Shown: positions 1 to 8,668 of the stretch, in pieces
How positions within the stretch are numbered: position 1 is the first letter of the stretch
Layout of the letters: each line of letters starts with the position of its first letter
Virus record (IMG/VR): IMGVR_UViG_2740892423_000019
Length of the DNA: 8,668 nucleotides
Origin: a virus
Taxonomy: Duplodnaviria; Heunggongvirae; Uroviricota; Caudoviricetes
Strand: one strand, 5' to 3'
The notes under the pieces: model-generated
The model's input: only the letters and a program-made list of their open reading frames with translations
What the model was told of the DNA's origin: nothing
Databases searched by the model: none
Position numbers and translations under genes: made by a program

Positions 1-1592
<1,592 letters not shown>

Positions 1593-1610
1593 ATTTTATA
1601 ACCCAGAACG

Positions 1611-1637
1611 GGCGTCAGAAATGACGCCTTTTTTATT
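1611..1637 (+). terminator. Rho-independent terminator candidate between J and lom
   Basis: A perfect 7-bp stem, ggcgtca (1611-1617) pairing with tgacgcc (1622-1628), has a gaaa loop and is followed by ttttttatt (1629-1637), 19 nt after the J stop codon. Confidence 0.6.
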
Positions 1638-1658
1638 GCAGAAAAGCGAGAGGTAATT

Positions 1659-2258
1659 ATGCGTAAACTTTATGCCGCCATTTTGTCCGCAGCCATCTGT
1701 CTGGCCGTATCCGGTGCGCCTGCATGGGCGTCTGAACATCAGTCCACGCTGAGCGCGGGCTATCTTCATGCCTCGACGAACGTTCCCGGCAGCGATGATC
1801 TTAACGGGATTAACGTGAAATACCGTTATGAGTTTACGGACACACTGGGGCTGGTGACGTCATTCAGCTATGCAGGAGACAAGAATCGCCAGCTGACCCG
1901 TTACAGCGATACCCGCTGGCATGAAGACTCCGTTCGTAACCGCTGGTTCAGCGTGATGGCGGGGCCGTCTGTACGCGTGAATGAATGGTTCAGCGCGTAT
2001 GCGATGGCGGGTGTGGCTTACAGCCGTGTGTCGACTTTCTCCGGGGATTATCTCCGCGTAACTGACAACAAGGGGAAAACGCACGATGTGCTGACCGGAA
2101 GTGATGACGCTCGCCACAGTAACACGTCTCTGGCGTGGGGAGCTGGCGTGCAGTTTAACCCGACCGAATCGGTGGCCATTGATATTGCTTATGAAGGCTC
2201 CGGCAGTGGTGACTGGCGCACTGACGGTTTCATCATGGGTGTCGGTTATAAATTCTGA
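1659..2258 (+). CDS. lom: Lom outer-membrane protein (Ail/Lom/PagC/OmpX family), lysogenic-conversion gene
   Basis: The 199-aa ORF has a Shine-Dalgarno-like gagagg 7 nt upstream of the ATG and an N-terminal signal peptide (MRKLYAAILSAAICLAVSGAPAWA). The C-terminal motifs INVKYRYE, SVMAGP, AYAMAGVA and IAYEGSGSGDWRTDGFIMGVGYKF match lambda Lom as I recall it. Its position directly after J matches lambda. Confidence 0.92.
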   Translation: MRKLYAAILSAAICLAVSGAPAWASEHQSTLSAGYLHASTNVPGSDDLNGINVKYRYEFTDTLGLVTSFSYAGDKNRQLTRYSDTRWHEDSVRNRWFSVMAGPSVRVNEWFSAYAMAGVAYSRVSTFSGDYLRVTDNKGKTHDVLTGSDDARHSNTSLAWGAGVQFNPTESVAIDIAYEGSGSGDWRTDGFIMGVGYKF

Positions 2259-2284
2259 TTAGCCAGGTAACACAGTGTTATGAC

Positions 2285-2311
2285 AGCCCGCCGGTTCAGG
2301 CGGGCTTTTTT
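2285..2311 (+). terminator. Rho-independent terminator candidate after lom
   Basis: An 8-bp GC-rich stem, agcccgcc (2285-2292) pairing with ggcgggct (2299-2306), has a ggttca loop and is followed by a T-run (2306-2311), 27 nt after the lom stop codon. Confidence 0.65.
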
Positions 2312-2322
2312 GTGGGGTGAAT

Positions 2323-5300
2323 ATGGCAGTAAAGATTTCAGGTGTACTGAAAGACGGTGCAGGTAAACCGGTACAGAACTGCACAATCCAGCTGAAAGCA
2401 AAACGTAACAGCACCACGGTGGTGGTGAACACGGTGGCATCTGAAAATCCGGATGAAGCCGGGCGTTACAGCATGGATGTTGAGTACGGTCAGTACAGCG
2501 TTATTCTGTTGGTGGAAGGCTTCCCGCCATCGCATGCCGGGACCATCACCGTGTATGAAGACTCACAACCGGGTACGCTGAATGATTTTCTCGGTGCCAT
2601 GACGGAGGATGATGCCCGTCCGGAGGCACTGCGCCGCTTTGAACTGATGGTGGAAGAGGTGGCGCGTAACGCGTCCGCAGTGGCACAGAACACGGCAGCC
2701 GCGAAGAAGTCAGCCAGCGATGCCAGCACATCAGCCCGTGAGGCGGCAACCCATGCGACTGATGCTACAGGCTCAGCACGTGCAGCCAGCACATCAGCCG
2801 GGCAGGCCGCGACGTCGGCTCAGTCAGCGTCTTCCAGCGCAGGAACGGCATCAACAAAGGCTACTGAAGCATCAAAAAGTGCTGCCGCTGCAGAGTCCTC
2901 AAAAAGCGCGGCAGCCACCAGTGCCGGTGCGGCGAAAACGTCAGAAACGAATGCCGCAGCATCACAACAATCAGCAGCCACTTCTGCATCCACCGCGACC
3001 ACGAAAGCGTCAGAAGCTGCCACCTCAGCCCGGGATGCGGCGGCCTCAAAAGAGGCAGCGAAATCATCAGAAACGAACGCATCATCAAGTGCCAGTAGTG
3101 CAGCTTCCTCGGCAACGGCGGCAGGAAATTCCGCGAAGGCCGCAAAAACGTCTGAGACGAATGCGGATAACAGCGCACAGGCGGCAGCAGACTCACAAAC
3201 TGCATCGGCAAACTCCGCGACAGCAGCCAAAAAATCAGAAACCAACGCGAAAAATAGCGAGGCAGCAGCAAAGAGCAGCGAAACCAACGCTAAAGCCAGC
3301 GAAACTAATGCTAAATCCAGTGAAACAAACGCGGCGAAATCTGCGGCGGACGCACTTAATTATCGCAACCAGGCGCAAGTAATTGTTGGCGATAATATCG
3401 GTCTTGGTGAAGTTGCCATGACCTGCACTGATATCTCTGTTGAGCCATCAGGTTATATTGGATTTGTCAGGATTTACATCTCAGCGAAAGGTTATCCATC
3501 AGTAGCGTCTAGTGCCGGTGATAATCTTATTTCTGGTTATATAGTTAGATCAGAAGTGTCAACAAAAAGATATTCCGGTCTATTTGTTGGTTCAGATACA
3601 AAATCATTGTATTCGTACATTTACAGCCAAAGTTCTGGCCCGCAATGGATACGTCATACCCGCAGAGATGAATTAAGCCGCTTTGGTCAAAATGAATCAA
3701 CAACTCGTATGTATGGTCCAACTGGTGATCGTTTCTTTGAAATCCATACTAACGGGAGTTGGGGAGTTTATGATTCTTCTTCTGGACAATGGTCTCCGTT
3801 AGGTTTAGCCCAGGGCGGTACTGGTGGAAGAACTATCGAGCAAGCACGTGCGAACTTGCGGGTAATGTATGAGCAAAAAGCTGGCCTTGCTAATACTGAC
3901 CTAAACACCCTTACCGGTGAATATTCTGGTTTCTATCAACAACCAACGAGCGCTTACGCAACAGAAGAATTAAATTACCCAATCGGTCTGGCGGGCGCTT
4001 TAATAGTGCTCCAAACGAGAGCCAACACTGCTTCTTCCTGCGTTCAGGTGTACTACCCTTATAATAATCCGGGAATTACTTATAGACGAATATATGAAGG
4101 AGGAAGCGGTACCTGGTCTGAATGGAAGAGAGATGTATCAACAGAAAGGGTTGAAGAGGGAAAAGAAACAACTTACGTATATTCTACGTATTCTTCAGGC
4201 GCACCACGCTTACAGGTTTCCAAATCTGGTTTGTGGGGTTGTCATAATGGCACTGGCTGGTTGCCATTAGCTGTTGGGCAAGGAGGTACAGGTGCGACAA
4301 CAGTAGAAGATGCGCGAAACAACTTAAGTCTTGGCGAAAGTAGCGCAGTTAAATTTAAAAACCTTACTTTAACCGAAGCGCTCGACACGACATTAGGACT
4401 GCTTACAAAAACAGGACGAGACTGGAACACGCAGCATACTGATAACATTAATAAATTTATACCAATTGCAGGCAGTACAAACGGCCCGGCAGGTTCTATG
4501 GTTCTTGGCGGCATTCATGTTCAATTTAGTAAAAATTATGCTGTGCAGTTCGGAGGCCGCAATTCCGGTTTTTGGGGAAGAACAATTGAAAATGGAACGA
4601 CGCAGGAATGGAAGAAATTACTAACAGTAGACGATCTCAATTCATCTACCGATCTTGCTGTCAGGTCATTAACCACATCTAACCCGGTAAAATCTGGCGG
4701 AGGGCGAATTGATGTCCTTGGAAGCACGTCAGACTATAGCAAAATGGATTGCTTTGTACGTGGGTTTGATAGCACCGGTAATTCTCTCGCGTGGGCGTTG
4801 GGTTCATCAGTCGGCGTAAGTAAGATGCTGTCGCTAAAAAATTTCTTTAGCGGAGCTGAGATACTGTTAAATGGTAATGACGGCGCGGTTCAACTCAAAA
4901 CAGGTGCTGTTAACGGGGCTAAAGCACAGGCGCTCACTATCAACAAGGATGAGGTTAACTCAACTGTTGATTTAACTCTTACAAAACAAACAGGGACTGG
5001 AAATCGTTTTGTTTTACAGAACTTAGGTAATACAGAACTATCATTTGCCGCAAAAGTATGGGGATCAAGTGATCGACAAAACGTTTTTGAGGTTGGAACG
5101 TCTGCTGCGTATCTGTTTTATGCGCAAAAAACATCAGCAGGCCAGTTGTTTGATGTAAATGGCGCTATTAATTGCACAACGCTGAATCAGTCATCAGACC
5201 GCGACCTTAAAGACGATATTCGCGTTATCAGCGACGCTACGAAAGCAATCCGTAAAATGAACGGGTACACCTACACGCTCAAGGAAAACGGAATGCCTTA

Positions 5301-5628
5301 TGCTGGCGTTATTGCACAGGAAGTAATGGAGGCGATACCTGAAGCTGTGGGATCGTTTACTCATTATGGTGAAGAGTTGCAAGGTCCGACCGTTGACGGC
5401 AACGAGCTACGCGAAGAAACTCGCTATCTTAATGTTGACTACTCCGCCGTGACGGGGTTACTTGTTCAGGTCGCCCGTGAAACAGATGATCGCGTTACCG
5501 CGCTGGAAGAGGAAAATACAACGTTACGTGAAAATCTGGCAACAGCAGGCACCCGGATCACCACTCTGGAAAATCAGGTAAGCGAACTGGTTGCACTTGT
5601 CGGGCAGTTAACAGGAAGCGAACATTGA
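2323..5628 (+). CDS. stf: Side tail fibre protein, mosaic: lambda Stf-like N-terminus, Ala/Ser/Thr-rich shaft, divergent distal region, C-terminal self-cleaving chaperone domain
   Basis: Translation from ATG 2323 begins MAVKISGVLKDGAGKPVQNCTIQLKAKRNSTTVVVNT, which matches the lambda Stf N-terminus as recalled. The ORF track starts at the in-frame GTG 2317, which I regard as an artefact. A GGGG Shine-Dalgarno-like run sits at 2314-2317. The protein has a long low-complexity Ala/Ser/Thr shaft with repeated K(T/S)SETNA units, and two GGTG-x-ARxNL motifs (LGLAQGGTGGRTIEQARANLRV and LPLAVGQGGTGATTVEDARNNLSLG) typical of the phage tail fibre repeat. The gene ends at TGA 5626-5628. Confidence 0.88.
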   Translation: MAVKISGVLKDGAGKPVQNCTIQLKAKRNSTTVVVNTVASENPDEAGRYSMDVEYGQYSVILLVEGFPPSHAGTITVYEDSQPGTLNDFLGAMTEDDARPEALRRFELMVEEVARNASAVAQNTAAAKKSASDASTSAREAATHATDATGSARAASTSAGQAATSAQSASSSAGTASTKATEASKSAAAAESSKSAAATSAGAAKTSETNAAASQQSAATSASTATTKASEAATSARDAAASKEAAKSSETNASSSASSAASSATAAGNSAKAAKTSETNADNSAQAAADSQTASANSATAAKKSETNAKNSEAAAKSSETNAKASETNAKSSETNAAKSAADALNYRNQAQVIVGDNIGLGEVAMTCTDISVEPSGYIGFVRIYISAKGYPSVASSAGDNLISGYIVRSEVSTKRYSGLFVGSDTKSLYSYIYSQSSGPQWIRHTRRDELSRFGQNESTTRMYGPTGDRFFEIHTNGSWGVYDSSSGQWSPLGLAQGGTGGRTIEQARANLRVMYEQKAGLANTDLNTLTGEYSGFYQQPTSAYATEELNYPIGLAGALIVLQTRANTASSCVQVYYPYNNPGITYRRIYEGGSGTWSEWKRDVSTERVEEGKETTYVYSTYSSGAPRLQVSKSGLWGCHNGTGWLPLAVGQGGTGATTVEDARNNLSLGESSAVKFKNLTLTEALDTTLGLLTKTGRDWNTQHTDNINKFIPIAGSTNGPAGSMVLGGIHVQFSKNYAVQFGGRNSGFWGRTIENGTTQEWKKLLTVDDLNSSTDLAVRSLTTSNPVKSGGGRIDVLGSTSDYSKMDCFVRGFDSTGNSLAWALGSSVGVSKMLSLKNFFSGAEILLNGNDGAVQLKTGAVNGAKAQALTINKDEVNSTVDLTLTKQTGTGNRFVLQNLGNTELSFAAKVWGSSDRQNVFEVGTSAAYLFYAQKTSAGQLFDVNGAINCTTLNQSSDRDLKDDIRVISDATKAIRKMNGYTYTLKENGMPYAGVIAQEVMEAIPEAVGSFTHYGEELQGPTVDGNELREETRYLNVDYSAVTGLLVQVARETDDRVTALEEENTTLRENLATAGTRITTLENQVSELVALVGQLTGSEH
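5194..5625 (+). other. C-terminal self-cleaving chaperone domain of Stf (Peptidase S74 / endosialidase-chaperone-like)
   Basis: The motif SSDRDLKDDIRVI has the Ser-Asp-x-x-x-Lys signature of autoproteolytic tail-fibre chaperone domains (phage K1F endosialidase, T5 L-shaped fibre). It is followed by IRKMNGYTYTLKENG and a heptad-like tail, TALEEENTTLRENLATAGTRITTLENQVSELVALVGQL. Predicted cleavage is after the Ser encoded at 5194-5196. The assignment is by motif recall and was not searched. Confidence 0.65.
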
Positions 5629-5679
5629 TATCCTTCAAGCCCTGAAGGAGGCTGTTCCTGGTACGTTCAGACTGTTGTT

Positions 5680-5811
5680 GAGCTGGAAATCGCAACGGAG
5701 GAAGAAACCTTGTTGCTGGAAGTCTGGAAGAAGTATCGGGTGTTGCTGAACCGTGTTGATACATCAACTGCACCTGATATTGAGTGGCCTACGAACCCTG
5801 TCAGGGAGTAA
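5680..5811 (+). pseudogene. tfa: 3' remnant of tail fibre assembly gene tfa (last ~43 codons, no start codon)
   Basis: The segment translates to [43 protein letters not shown], which closely matches the lambda Tfa C-terminus (recalled as ...[37 protein letters not shown]...). It lies in the same frame as stf, directly after the stf TGA, with no ATG, GTG or TTG start and no N-terminal Tfa sequence. Confidence 0.7.
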
Positions 5812-5825
5812 TCATTGGGATTATG

Positions 5826-5858
5826 CCGCAGCACGTCTTAAGCAAGAGCGAGCTGCGG
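5826..5858. repeat. 33-nt palindromic element, copy A (hairpin between the convergent tfa remnant and methyltransferase 3' ends)
   Basis: The sequence is ccgcagcacgtcttaagcaagagcgagctgcgg. An imperfect stem (ccgcagc...gctgcgg) lies 8 nt downstream of the - strand methyltransferase stop codon (5866-5868). It is 33/37 identical, including the flanking ttgg, to copy B at 8526-8558. Confidence 0.5.
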
Positions 5859-5865
5859 TTGGATG

Positions 5866-6534
5866 CTATTTTTTCCCTGAAGCGGAAAACATTACTACAG
5901 TACCTTGAACCTTGGTTTTAACATTCTCGAAATGCTCTGAGAGTATATGTGTTAAGCCTTCTTCGGAATCTTTTGTGTTTGAAAAGATGCCTTTCTGATT
6001 GTAAATGCGCATCAGTTTTTGACCGAAGCTATTGTGCACAACTCCATCGCCAAGAATTGTGGCTCCGTATAGAGTTCCATCGTCAGTTAAGGCCTGCGCC
6101 GCATTGCGTATTACACAGCTTTTTGTAGATATATTTCCAGGCAGGCAGTGAAGAAGGTAAAACATGGAAATGGAATCAAATTGACCATGTAACGCCGCGG
6201 GATAAGGTTCAAAAACATCATGGCTAATTTTATGTTTAATTTTTGATTCCCCAGCCCTTGTAGATGCCGCGTTCAGGCTAGCTTCGTTCAAATCCATTAA
6301 AGATATCAGACTACTCTCAGGTACGTGAGTAAGGTAAAACCCAGTTCCAACACCAATATCCAGATGGTTGTTACCTAAATGTTCCAGAAAGTGTGGAAGA
6401 AGGTGTTCCTTTGTAGGACATCCCCATGCAAGCCGATTTGATACTCCCAAAACCCACCAGTCATAAAGCTTTAGGGTAAGTGGTGTGTAAATTTTAGCCC
6501 CATCATCTGTGTTTTTTTTCATTAATTTCACCAT
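5866..6534 (-). CDS. Class I (Rossmann-fold) SAM-dependent methyltransferase, substrate unknown
   Basis: The 222-aa ORF carries a canonical motif I, HLDIGVGTGFY (hh-D/E-h-G-x-G-x-G), and a downstream acidic motif-II-like LISLMDLNE. GC is around 40%, lower than the phage structural genes. The start is uncertain: ATG at 6534 (MVKLMKK) or ATG at 6522 (MKKNTDD, weak ggtga Shine-Dalgarno-like sequence 6 nt upstream). Confidence 0.72.
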   Translation of the reverse strand: MVKLMKKNTDDGAKIYTPLTLKLYDWWVLGVSNRLAWGCPTKEHLLPHFLEHLGNNHLDIGVGTGFYLTHVPESSLISLMDLNEASLNAASTRAGESKIKHKISHDVFEPYPAALHGQFDSISMFYLLHCLPGNISTKSCVIRNAAQALTDDGTLYGATILGDGVVHNSFGQKLMRIYNQKGIFSNTKDSEEGLTHILSEHFENVKTKVQGTVVMFSASGKK

Positions 6535-6590
6535 GTTATAGTTTTGTTTGTGAATTAAATCAATTATGGTGATGAATTACAAGGGGTTAA

Positions 6591-6860
6591 ATGCTGCCGC
6601 AGCATAGCGATATTGAAATAGCCTGGTATGCTTCGATACAGCAGGAGCCGAATGGCTGGAAGACCGTCACCACATAGTTCTACATCCAGGAATTCAGTGA
6701 GCATATTGCGCCACTTCAGGATGCTGTAGATCTGGAGATCGCAACGGAGGAAGAAAACTCGTTGCTGGAAGCCTGGAAGAAGTATCGGGTGTTGCTGAAC
6801 CGTGTTAATACAACAACTGCACCGGATATTGAATGGCCAACAGGACCCATTATCGAATAG
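6591..6860 (+). pseudogene. Small ORF with a Tfa C-terminal-like domain, interrupted by an in-frame amber codon (TAG 6675-6677)
   Basis: ATG 6591 is preceded by aagggg (Shine-Dalgarno-like). It encodes MLPQHSDIEIAWYASIQQEPNGWKTVTT, then TAG, then in the same frame [60 protein letters not shown]. The second part matches the lambda Tfa C-terminus ([20 protein letters not shown]...[22 protein letters not shown]). No start codon exists after the amber codon. It resembles the small Tfa-C-like proteins of E. coli cryptic prophages (ynaE/ydfK family), from memory and unverified. Confidence 0.5.
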
Positions 6861-6871
6861 TGCATTACGAA

Positions 6872-6904
6872 CTGCAGGATATTATATGGGATAATATTCT
6901 GCAG
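6872..6904. terminator. AT-rich inverted repeat between convergent genes (possible bidirectional terminator)
   Basis: Arms of 14 nt, ctgcaggatattat and ataatattctgcag, carry one mismatch and flank a 5-nt spacer (atggg). The + strand continues with tttatt. The repeat sits between the small ORF stop (6860) and the cyclase stop (6934). Confidence 0.3.
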
Positions 6905-6933
6905 TTTATTGGGGCTGTATTTTAAAAAGGTGT

Positions 6934-8265
6934 TTATTTTGAGTGAGTTATCACCTTGTTTTTTCCGGTTCTTTTGGCTTGATATAACGCTTTATCGGCA
7001 TTGACTAACATTTCAGATGGACTGAGATTATTCTCTTTTGAAGTAAAGCAACCAATACTGACAGTTATTTTCTCAGGTCCATGCGATAATAATTTTTCCG
7101 AGCATTGCTCTTCAATGTTTTTTCTGATTCGCTCTGCAATTGATAGCAAGAGCTTTTGAGTATTACCTTTAATGATAATACCGAACTCCTCACCGCCTAA
7201 GCGCCCTAATATATCCTCTTTCCTGATGGATTTTTTTATTATTCTGGTAACCATTACTATGACTTGATCACCCATATGATGCCCCCATTTGTCATTGATG
7301 CTTTTGAAATTGTCAATATCTAACATTATTACTGAGAAATCATGGTGTTTTGATATATTCTTCAATGAGTCAATAAAGTATCTTCTATTGTATGTATTCG
7401 TTAGTGGATCATGAATTGCCATATGATTAGCATGATTTAATTTCCTGAAAACATAATACATGAGTGTTGAAATGATATAAATCATTGATATCAATTCAAG
7501 AAATTTTGTCATGTACCATGCAGGATGGGATTTATCAATAAAATACAATAAAATTAGATTATTGCATACTGACACTATACTAATAAGTATTATACACAAC
7601 CATATTTTTGAGTAATTACGTATGCTGATGCATGAGCTGATAAGTAATACAAGCCAAAATACTGATATTATTTTGGTGTACACGATATTCCACGTCGACA
7701 AATGACGATTCAGCGAGTATTGTATAATATTAAGACTATATTTTATATTGTCACTGCTTAGATTTTTTGCTACAAACGGAGTAATAAAAAGAATTAATAT
7801 TGACAAAACAACAATTATTATGTTTCTTTTATCTTCTAAAACACTTTTATTTTTAACATTGGTGGAATAAACAGCCAGAAAGATTATAGATATAAAGCTG
7901 AACTGACGGAATAGATAATATATTGCGATATCATTTGATTTCTGATAGATTGTAGATAAATCGTTACCTAACGGAGATAAAGAAATAATAGCCACTTCTA
8001 ATAAATAATACGTGTTGCTCAAAAACGCGAATGAAAGAATTAAGAGATAACTTTGTCTCTGATTAGAAACATAGTAAAGCAATAGAAAAATAAAAATCAT
8101 CAGGTTTATGAAAAAAAGCCCAATAATGAAAACACTATAACTTATTTGTGTTGTTTGTGTTATGTATATTCCATTATTTTCATGCAGTAACAAAAATATA
8201 ATAGAGATGCATGAAAATAAAAAGATGAAGATTTTTATTTTTATAGGTACCTGCTTGATAATCAT
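6934..8265 (-). CDS. Membrane-anchored diguanylate cyclase: N-terminal polytopic membrane domain (MASE-like) plus C-terminal GGDEF domain with GGEEF active site and RxxD I-site
   Basis: The 443-aa ORF has ATG at 8265-8263 with aggtg 5 nt upstream on the - strand. The first ~270 residues are highly hydrophobic, with about 8 predicted transmembrane segments rich in I, L and F. The GGDEF domain motifs are all present: HDPLTNTYNRRYF, MLDIDNFKSINDKWGHHMGDQV, the I-site RKED (7213-7224), and RLGGEEFG with GGEEF at 7183-7197. GC is about 25-30% by hand count on sampled 60-nt lines. The architecture resembles E. coli YcdT/DgcT-type cyclases and possibly the prophage-associated DgcX reported in some pathogenic E. 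coli; both comparisons are from memory. Confidence 0.9.
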   Translation of the reverse strand: MIIKQVPIKIKIFIFLFSCISIIFLLLHENNGIYITQTTQISYSVFIIGLFFINLMIFIFLLLYYVSNQRQSYLLILSFAFLSNTYYLLEVAIISLSPLGNDLSTIYQKSNDIAIYYLFRQFSFISIIFLAVYSTNVKNKSVLEDKRNIIIVVLSILILFITPFVAKNLSSDNIKYSLNIIQYSLNRHLSTWNIVYTKIISVFWLVLLISSCISIRNYSKIWLCIILISIVSVCNNLILLYFIDKSHPAWYMTKFLELISMIYIISTLMYYVFRKLNHANHMAIHDPLTNTYNRRYFIDSLKNISKHHDFSVIMLDIDNFKSINDKWGHHMGDQVIVMVTRIIKKSIRKEDILGRLGGEEFGIIIKGNTQKLLLSIAERIRKNIEEQCSEKLLSHGPEKITVSIGCFTSKENNLSPSEMLVNADKALYQAKRTGKNKVITHSK

Positions 8266-8337
8266 GTACGCACCTGAGAATGATATATATATAATATGTA
8301 TCGCTACAAATAACGATAATTTCTTACTGGTGATAGT

Positions 8338-8366
8338 ATACTATTATTCTGGTTAATCGCTGTCAA
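8338..8366 (-). promoter_or_regulatory. Candidate sigma70 promoter for the diguanylate cyclase
   Basis: On the - strand there is a perfect -35 TTGACA (plus-strand tgtcaa, 8361-8366), a 17-nt spacer, and a -10-like TAGTAT (plus-strand atacta, 8338-8343), about 70 nt upstream of the ATG. This is a hand prediction in an AT-rich region where chance matches are common. Confidence 0.25.
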
Positions 8367-8525
8367 ATTGATGATTTTGGTTAGTATTGCAATAGCGAAG
8401 AGTTTGATCCGGTAAGACTGGCTAGGCAAGGCTATACCAAAAAATCAGTGTAGGTTCAGAAAACGATGCACCATACAATCATCAATAATTTCAAATTGTC
8501 CATTGTGCATAAATCATAAAGAAAA

Positions 8526-8558
8526 CCGCAGCACGTCGTATGCAAGAACGTGCTGCGG
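8526..8558 (-). terminator. 33-nt palindromic element, copy B; on the - strand a hairpin followed by a T-rich tract (terminator candidate for a gene entering from the right edge)
   Basis: The sequence is ccgcagcacgtcgtatgcaagaacgtgctgcgg, with a perfect 11-bp stem (ccgcagcacgt / acgtgctgcgg) and an 11-nt loop. On the - strand the stem is followed by ttttctttatg. Reverse-strand frames at 8587-8668 remain open to the window edge, consistent with the 3' end of a - strand gene. Confidence 0.4.
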
Positions 8559-8668
8559 TTGGCTGGTGAACTTTCTGGATTTGCCCCTATATTTCCAGAC
8601 ATCTGTTATCACTTAACCCATTACAAGCCCGCTGCCGCAGATATTCCCGTGGCGAGCGATAACCCAGC

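Follow-up and report, generated by a model that had tools for sequence, protein, structure and literature searches.

Why should a tail fibre that carries its own chaperone be followed by a fragment of the gene for a separate one? The question is raised by stf, the side tail fibre gene on an 8,668-nucleotide (nt) stretch of DNA—the window, as the whole of it will be called here—from the IMG/VR virus record IMGVR_UViG_2740892423_000019 (Caudoviricetes), in which the late operon of a lambda-like prophage reaches its right end. The 1101-amino-acid (aa) Stf ends in a chaperone domain of the Peptidase_S74 type, and a short distance behind its stop codon lie the last ~48 codons of tfa, the gene for the tail fibre assembly protein. 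The explanation we favour, and hold to be probable as a whole, is that a mosaic, self-chaperoning stf and a non-functional tfa pseudogene remnant go back to one old event, and that the remnant has been kept as the right-hand crossover arm of the fibre cassette. All sequence features that an earlier reading of the same letters (the original prediction) had described are present where it placed them.

Stf itself is a mosaic that joins a lambda-type anchor and shaft, middle domains foreign to lambda and a distal module ending in S74 (Table 1). As had been predicted, its N-terminus is lambda-like and G+C-rich: phage_tail_N (PF08400) matches residues 1–134 (E = 3e-72, Pfam), as it does in a lambda-type anchor, and positions 2131–3164 of the window are 87.5% identical to lambda DNA. 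The gene also sits where a lambda-type Stf is expected, with both J and lom upstream. Its open reading frame (ORF) could start at GTG 2317 or ATG 2323, the latter being the start assigned in the closest genome by PGAP, the annotation pipeline of NCBI. Further downstream, the G+C content falls from 0.57–0.62 (2400–3150) to 0.39–0.45 (3300–5100) and the likeness to lambda ends. The mapping of breakpoints that had been suggested finds residues 1–284 of Stf to be 87% identical to lambda orf-401, and gives no BLASTP similarity to orf-314, i.e. no lambda-type distal half, and a retained segment corresponding to residues 147–194 of lambda Tfa. The orf-314 product, the distal half of lambda Stf, resembles T4 gp37 and has been reported to bind OmpC. 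From the lack of distal homology, we infer that the receptor of the window's fibre differs from that of lambda. The phage tail fibre repeat PF03406, for which a check had also been proposed, has no match in Stf at E ≤ 0.01 (Pfam), and NCBIfam returned no match for Stf or for the tfa stub.

A simple exchange of the distal fibre does not describe this gene fully. Comparison with phages and with 80 IMG/VR loci revealed recurrent similarity breakpoints at 3164/3296/3465, 4410, 4660, ~4910–4960 and 5150–5205. The first three fall in the Ala/Ser-rich shaft and mark where similarity to the window stops in PhiR26_1, Ayreon and mEp460, respectively; 4410 directly follows the second of two GGTG...AR.NL motifs (starting at 3814 and 4282), and 5150–5205 coincides with the start of S74. 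Stf is therefore a mosaic of several parts rather than two; the original prediction was right about mosaicism but overlooked the boundaries at ~3174, 4410, 4660 and 5150–5200. Within this framework, the shaft contains a 21-nt tandem repeat (3276–3332), a T4 gp34-type repeat stands directly before the presumptive cleavage site (PDB profile match, E = 3e-8), and homologous proteins elsewhere have been named by PGAP as 'pyocin knob domain-containing S74 family peptidase'.

The chaperone domain at the C-terminus was likewise correctly recognised. PF13884 scores 51.1 bits against a cut-off of 22, with residues 958–1009 aligned to positions 1–57 of the 58-position profile, which places Stf in the family. 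The profile begins at the second serine of the sequence SSDRDLK (residues 957–963), and SSDR.LK, including the Ser and the Lys(+5), is invariant in 31 homologues of 61–97% identity. The chaperone domain of S16 gp37 (PDB 6f45), where the motif reads SSDRRIK, aligns with that of the window (E = 5.8e-9). In T5 pb1, the scissile bond lies between Thr1263 and Ser1264, the serine is activated by Lys1269, and the S1264A exchange blocks cleavage (PMC4690869); the window's serine and lysine have the same spacing. Ser958 (codon 5194–5196) is the predicted nucleophile and Lys963 (codon 5209–5211) its predicted partner, and cleavage before Ser958 would yield a 144-aa fragment (15.9 kDa) and a mature chain of 99.7 kDa.

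What such a domain might do is best judged from its characterised relatives. K1F endosialidase, T5 pb1 and S16 gp37 share with the window a C-terminal S74 domain (PF13884) and the SDxxxK motif, and the fragment predicted for the window falls in the same size range of ~130–145 residues; a C-terminal coiled coil may be a further common feature. The window's receptor-binding part before S74 is not detectably akin to the bullet domain of T5 pb1 or the endosialidase, and its cleavage is predicted from sequence whereas that of T5 pb1 has been shown experimentally. The S74 domain is terminal in Stf; its last ~40 residues are helical in the structural model discussed below, with a predicted local distance difference test score (pLDDT) of 66–84, and coiled-coil matches are weak. 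By analogy with K1F endosialidase and T5 pb1, the domain would drive trimerisation of the fibre and then remove itself through Ser958/Lys963 autoproteolysis, releasing ~16 kDa. If the chaperone is built in, a separate Tfa chaperone should be unnecessary, and such a link is established for related phages, one example being a Teseptimavirus pair in which either the chaperone domain is built in or Tfa is a protein of its own (PMC11990801). Fusion of the lambda Stf N-terminus to the K1F spike gave working lambda particles (PMC11338833). Both autocleavage and Tfa independence of the window's Stf are suggested by these parallels.

A 'T5-like' label for the tip was considered and dropped: searches of PDB sequences and profiles gave only the S16 gp37 chaperone domain and the T4 gp34 repeat, with no match to T5 pb1, including its bullet domain, or to K1F endosialidase. 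Fibres of the T5-like phage slur09 and of FritzHoffmann show weak DNA similarity (72–75%) to a part of the distal module only. Separately, three database proteins (P0053, P0061 and P0081) have a terminase large-subunit domain (PF05876) joined straight to an S74 fibre end, and in one genome match (H59) a 'terminase gpA endonuclease subunit' is annotated across such a junction; these joined proteins are probably prophage deletion derivatives that have lost the whole stretch separating the terminase gene from the stf end.

Behind the TGA of stf, 60 codons in the same frame run to a TAA at 5809–5811. They had been taken for a tfa remnant of ~43 codons fused in frame immediately after the stop. The frame is indeed that of stf, but a 37-nt spacer unrelated to tfa intervenes and tfa homology begins only at ~5666, leaving a remnant of ~48 codons. 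That this remnant has no start codon holds as well: its frame contains neither ATG nor GTG, and the first TTG is at 5710. Tfa reportedly plays its roles by means of a variable, fibre-binding N-terminal domain and a conserved C-terminal domain. The stub matches Caudo_TAP (PF02413) over positions 87–130 of the 131-position profile only (E = 2.5e-19), which falls short of a complete Tfa with ~190 aa, a variable N-terminal domain and a start codon; PGAP labels it 'tail fiber assembly protein, incomplete, missing N-terminus' and a pseudogene. Lambda presents the reverse case, as its Stf follows lom in the same way and carries the same anchor, yet depends on a Tfa of 194 aa and lacks S74; over the tfa 3′ end and the adjoining hairpin, lambda and the window are 84–91% identical in DNA. 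An intact tfa elsewhere in the operon would have told against the idea that the chaperone gene is lost, and none was found: the window holds no full-length Tfa-type ORF, and none longer than 101 aa exists within 4 kb in 80 related loci. A hairpin at 5645–5663, behind the stf stop, was considered as a recoding or terminator signal and rejected, its stability being no better than that of shuffled sequence (z = −0.57).

The arrangement is far from private to this prophage. Stop codon, spacer and the start of tfa homology are common to the window, to the phages mEp460 (JQ182728, gene mEp460_020) and Ayreon (MF807953), and to a prophage at the Qin site, where pinQ comes next. A 432-nt junction probe was covered to at least 80% in 802 of 5426 complete Escherichia coli genomes (~15%); stf and the stub were covered as a whole in 99. 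Among IMG/VR loci with a chaperone domain at least 86% identical and with at least 49 bp of downstream sequence, every one has the stub at +37 from the stop, and it is absent from loci with ~80% identical chaperone domains (phage contigs of ~54 kb). mEp460 and Ayreon are isolated phages. They resemble the window in their J-lom-stf order and N-terminal anchor, reach 89% (mEp460) and 79% (Ayreon) protein identity to it in the distal module and S74, have an identical stop codon, spacer and stub, and like the window lack a tfa gene after stf. They differ from it at the 3′ end of the stub and in everything downstream—DinI and integrase in mEp460 as opposed to ybcY, a tfaX remnant and dgcX in the window—and the mEp460 fibre also differs in its middle (residues ~515–676).

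Since the same stop and junction occur in 802 complete genomes and two isolated phages, an assembly error at TGA 5626, which the original prediction had named as a possible objection, is excluded. On comparison of these sequences, the junction is one ancestral event that has since spread, not decay peculiar to the window's prophage. The 'module swap' that had been read from it thus stands as far as the mosaic fibre and its S74 cassette are concerned, but not as an event in the history of this particular prophage. It also follows from a single ancestral junction that the shared frame of stf and tfa, a one-in-three chance, was inherited and carries no functional weight.

A second, independent arrangement came from a scan of GTDB genomes with the alignment, which returned one locus, in E. 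ruysiae (L087, 3752–5270). Here, at the end of a Qin-like prophage, an 800-aa stf without S74 is followed by a 93-aa ORF, a 346-aa S74 fibre protein, a membrane-like ORF (102 aa) and, just before a pin invertase, a tfa stub of 36 codons. This stub (Tfa residues 156–191) is shorter and has a different junction, meaning that a tfa 3′ remnant beside an S74 fibre arose at least twice. As a side observation, stf and stub of the window's type are often found at the Qin site directly upstream of pinQ (L002, 8578–9168, and many E. coli genomes, H4–H25), with no invertible alternative fibre end visible alongside, which is unusual for a pin-associated fibre locus.

Why, then, does the stub persist? From 5666 onward, the window has matches in thousands of E. 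coli genomes, since what begins here is the conserved 3′ end that tfa genes have in common. The S74-linked stubs comprise 38 distinct versions in 52 loci and end in at least seven Tfa-type C-termini, including ...TNPVRE, ...AVPVME, ...PALP, ...EEPNTM, ...VAPIG and ...PPPSKR, while right-hand similarity breakpoints (5763, 5789 and 5860–5865) lie inside or just behind the stub. Its polymorphisms come as multi-site blocks typical of tfa alleles, about half of them synonymous, and the spacer has no coding signature. The window's own stub is mEp460-like up to ~5724 and switches to the PhiR26_1 type between ~5724 and 5789; from 5666 to 6815, the window matches PhiR26_1 from its intact tfa through ybcY at 97% identity. 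That tfa homology can be used for crossing over has been seen experimentally: in one third of lambda x Rac recombinants, the crossover lay in the stretch of tfa with 95% identity (PMC3945230).

These observations are consistent with a scenario in which an S74-ended distal cassette replaced, in one old event, the distal part of stf and, with it, the variable N-terminal region of tfa. The homology common to lambdoid phages at this position would then consist of the conserved tfa 3′ end with its trailing hairpin, which would hence be a right-hand crossover arm whenever the cassette moves. The stub would have been repeatedly overwritten from intact tfa alleles, and the same tfa-end homology brackets the downstream cargo, ybcY and the adjacent dgcX. 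A role of the stub as a recombination arm is what this pattern suggests.

Other readings deserve to be weighed against this one. That tfa was cut short recently, as a dead prophage decayed, or that the truncation is an artefact of assembly or sequencing, with the gene continuing past 5626 or tfa intact until recently, is hardly tenable. Some decay is evident from the nonsense codon TAG 6675–6677 in the tfaX-like ORF downstream, and defective prophages are frequent at this attachment site, but the same stop and junction recur not only in the complete genomes and in mEp460 and Ayreon but also in more than 50 IMG/VR loci, and one IMG/VR contig (L007) is 100% identical to window positions 1191–8594; as far as sequence data allow, this reading is already refuted. 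We consider it most unlikely that the stub is expressed as a mini-Tfa—the conserved C-terminal domain, made from TTG 5710, by re-initiation or by read-through—that aids fibre oligomerisation or another assembly step. Short ORFs for the Tfa C-terminus do form PHROGs of their own (phrog_2341, 88 aa; phrog_3792, 78 aa; phrog_5572, 130 aa), an 89–101-aa tfaX-like ORF is intact in several phages, the stub frame is open in 37 of the 38 versions, and a GGAGG lies 8 nt upstream of TTG 5710. Yet this GGAGG merely encodes the conserved 'TEEE', TTG 5710 is TCG in the consensus of relatives, ATG and GTG are missing, all three spacer polymorphisms are non-synonymous, and one stub (L010) is frameshifted. 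A read-through extension would be lost along with the cleaved chaperone domain, the post-stop hairpin is no more stable than shuffled sequence, and the coding-like polymorphism is explained by block-wise import from intact tfa alleles.

Very unlikely, too, is the possibility that the stub DNA is kept as cis-acting spacing between the end of the late operon and the hairpin at 5825–5859, whose task would be to terminate transcripts that converge there or to stabilise them. This hairpin has been conserved between lambda and the window, with compensating changes in its stem, and is far stabler than shuffled sequence (z = −4.15), and its second copy at 8526–8558 has a T-run after it on the minus strand. 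A scan of 5500–8668 for consensus terminators found no site, however, and many relatives diverge inside the stub (5763, 5789) into other downstream DNA that has no hairpin, so that the stub persists independently of it; nor does a terminator need 140 nt of former coding sequence before it. A stronger version of the crossover-arm proposal, in which the last ~48 codons and the hairpin are a selected, portable 'docking' element with which any lambdoid phage could take up chaperone-independent fibre tips and cargo (ybcY, dgcX) in one double crossover, and/or specify a short Tfa C-terminal peptide that aids assembly, strikes us as unlikely.

Several points weigh against the favoured explanation of a self-chaperoning mosaic with its tfa remnant kept as a crossover arm. 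An AlphaFold2 monomer model of residues 697–1101, built on the 31-sequence alignment, was unusable (mean pLDDT 43.7, predicted template modelling score 0.23), so that the fold of the tip and the chaperone domain is judged here from sequence; the shallow alignment and an intertwined trimer are likely causes of this failure. Persistence as a 'homology arm' is deduced at the level of populations, and the stub might have escaped deletion just because it is young or short. Selection for translation could lie behind the open frame in nearly all stub versions. Sequence imported from intact tfa alleles also accounts for it, and the data do not separate the two, as a codon-position test on the stub cannot tell selection in place from variation imported via intact tfa genes.

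Table 1. Features of the window discussed in the text, with strand and basis of assignment.
Feature	Positions	Strand	Basis
J, 3′ part	30–1592	+	ORF list and Pfam
lom	1659–2258	+	ORF list and Pfam
stf, side tail fibre gene, 1101 aa	2323–5628 (TGA 5626–5628)	+	ORF; Pfam phage_tail_N and Peptidase_S74
Lambda-like N-terminal anchor and first Ala/Ser-rich shaft part, GC-rich	2323–3174	+	Lambda orf-401 identity, GC
Remaining shaft and middle fibre domains, low GC, without lambda counterpart	3175–4410	+	Comparison with lambda
Distal fibre module, 92.5% DNA identity with phage mEp460	4411–5193	+	Left breakpoints cluster at 4410, 4660 and ~4910–4960
Peptidase_S74 C-terminal intramolecular chaperone domain, residues 958–1101	5194–5625	+	Pfam E = 1.7e-13; S16 gp37 alignment
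Spacer, 37 nt, unrelated to tfa	5629–5665	+	Identical or near-identical in mEp460, Ayreon and Qin-site prophage
tfa 3′ stub, last ~48 codons, copy A of 127-nt direct repeat	5666–5811	+	Caudo_TAP; lambda Tfa residues 147–194
G+C-rich post-tfa hairpin, copy 1	5825–5859	.	Lambda and PhiR26_1 alignment; z = −4.15; repeat D2
ybcY-type class I S-adenosylmethionine (SAM)-dependent methyltransferase, cargo between two tfa 3′ ends	5866–6534	-	Pfam Methyltransf_12/23/25; phrog_2132
Second tfa remnant, tfaX-like mini-ORF, 89 codons	6591–6860	+	Translation; repeat D1
MASE4-GGDEF diguanylate cyclase, dgcX	6934–8265	-	ORF list and Pfam; context match
Post-tfa hairpin, copy 2, beyond dgcX	8526–8558	.	Repeat D2, 88%; fold z = −3.8 to −3.9

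The tfa 3′ end recurs downstream, where the original prediction had overlooked a second tfa remnant and the direct repeats around ybcY. The 127-nt repeat D1 (copy A, 5666–5792; copy B, 6715–6841; 89% identity) brackets the methyltransferase gene, and copy B belongs to the tfaX-like ORF, which consists of a short N-terminus and the conserved Tfa C-terminus. This ORF is broken in the window by the TAG mentioned above, where PhiR26_1 has CAG, and is intact (89–101 aa) in PhiR26_1 and three IMG/VR loci (L030, L065 and L067). The order tfaD-ybcY-tfaX in the K-12 prophage DLP12 and tfa-ybcY-tfa′ in PhiR26_1 likewise places a minus-strand methyltransferase between two direct tfa 3′ ends, with the differences that the left tfa is full length in both of them but a stub behind an S74 fibre in the window, and that the downstream cargo is appY or ompT there and dgcX here. 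ybcY is intact in the window and a pseudogene in DLP12. Recombination between the D1 copies would delete it, and most genomes with this stf are without ybcY.

The second copy of the post-tfa hairpin matches the sequence found directly after the stub in mEp460, and it lies beyond the diguanylate cyclase gene, which thus has a tfa end on one side and, on the other, what normally comes directly after tfa. With the T-run on the minus strand, this copy looks like a terminator in that orientation, and the conserved hairpins may have such a role in general. In addition, a perfect 17-bp hairpin (6869–6907; z = −5.2) separates the tfaX-like remnant from the cyclase gene, whose 3′ end faces it, and is probably a terminator for one or both of the converging genes. 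The MASE4-GGDEF gene has the context described for dgcX in enteroaggregative E. coli (EAEC) O104:H4 and in enterotoxigenic E. coli (ETEC) (PMC4287979). The closest complete genome, that of E. coli RMDEC332 (98% identical), has the gene order of the window followed by ybhB and bioA. The prophage is integrated at the lambda attachment site, and this order puts it on the bio side. The lambda att core (GCTTTTTTATACTAA) is absent from the window; the closest genome has it (L001, 12563–12577) past the point where the window stops on the right, ~330 bp beyond the second hairpin. dgcX therefore lies inside the prophage, as cargo.

What we describe is correct but ordinary. The module is present in the ~15% of complete E. 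coli genomes reported above, hundreds of RefSeq genomes already carry annotations of the fibre type, the S74 domain and the tfa pseudogene, and isolated phages with the same features have been deposited since 2012; a published paper that explicitly discusses the stub was not found. The principles involved are established as well, namely that a built-in chaperone domain replaces Tfa and that fibre modules are swapped by homologous crossovers in stf and tfa. Of modest practical value is the distal module (residues ~677–957 plus the built-in chaperone), a natural chimera made without Tfa, whose boundaries—the GGTG...AR.NL motifs and the S74 start—coincide with the type of fusion point used for retargeting lambda particles. 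The tfa 3′ end, met repeatedly around ybcY, dgcX and the fibre tip, illustrates clearly that the exchange of cassettes is channelled by short stretches of conserved sequence where the lambdoid late operon ends. Finally, the placement within the prophage, as cargo, of dgcX, which in EAEC and ETEC specifies a biofilm-related diguanylate cyclase, refines the published idea of its hitch-hiking by specialised transduction (PMC4287979).

The side fibre is not the only receptor-binding protein here with a foreign end. DNA similarity of the window's J to lambda J (93.7%) ends at ~1150, and that to J of the closest genome at 1210. Because both break off there, the ~145 C-terminal residues of J (1150–1592; Pfam Ig_GpJ_C, receptor-binding) also appear to be a swapped module, and LamB, the receptor of lambda, may not be the one used by the central fibre.

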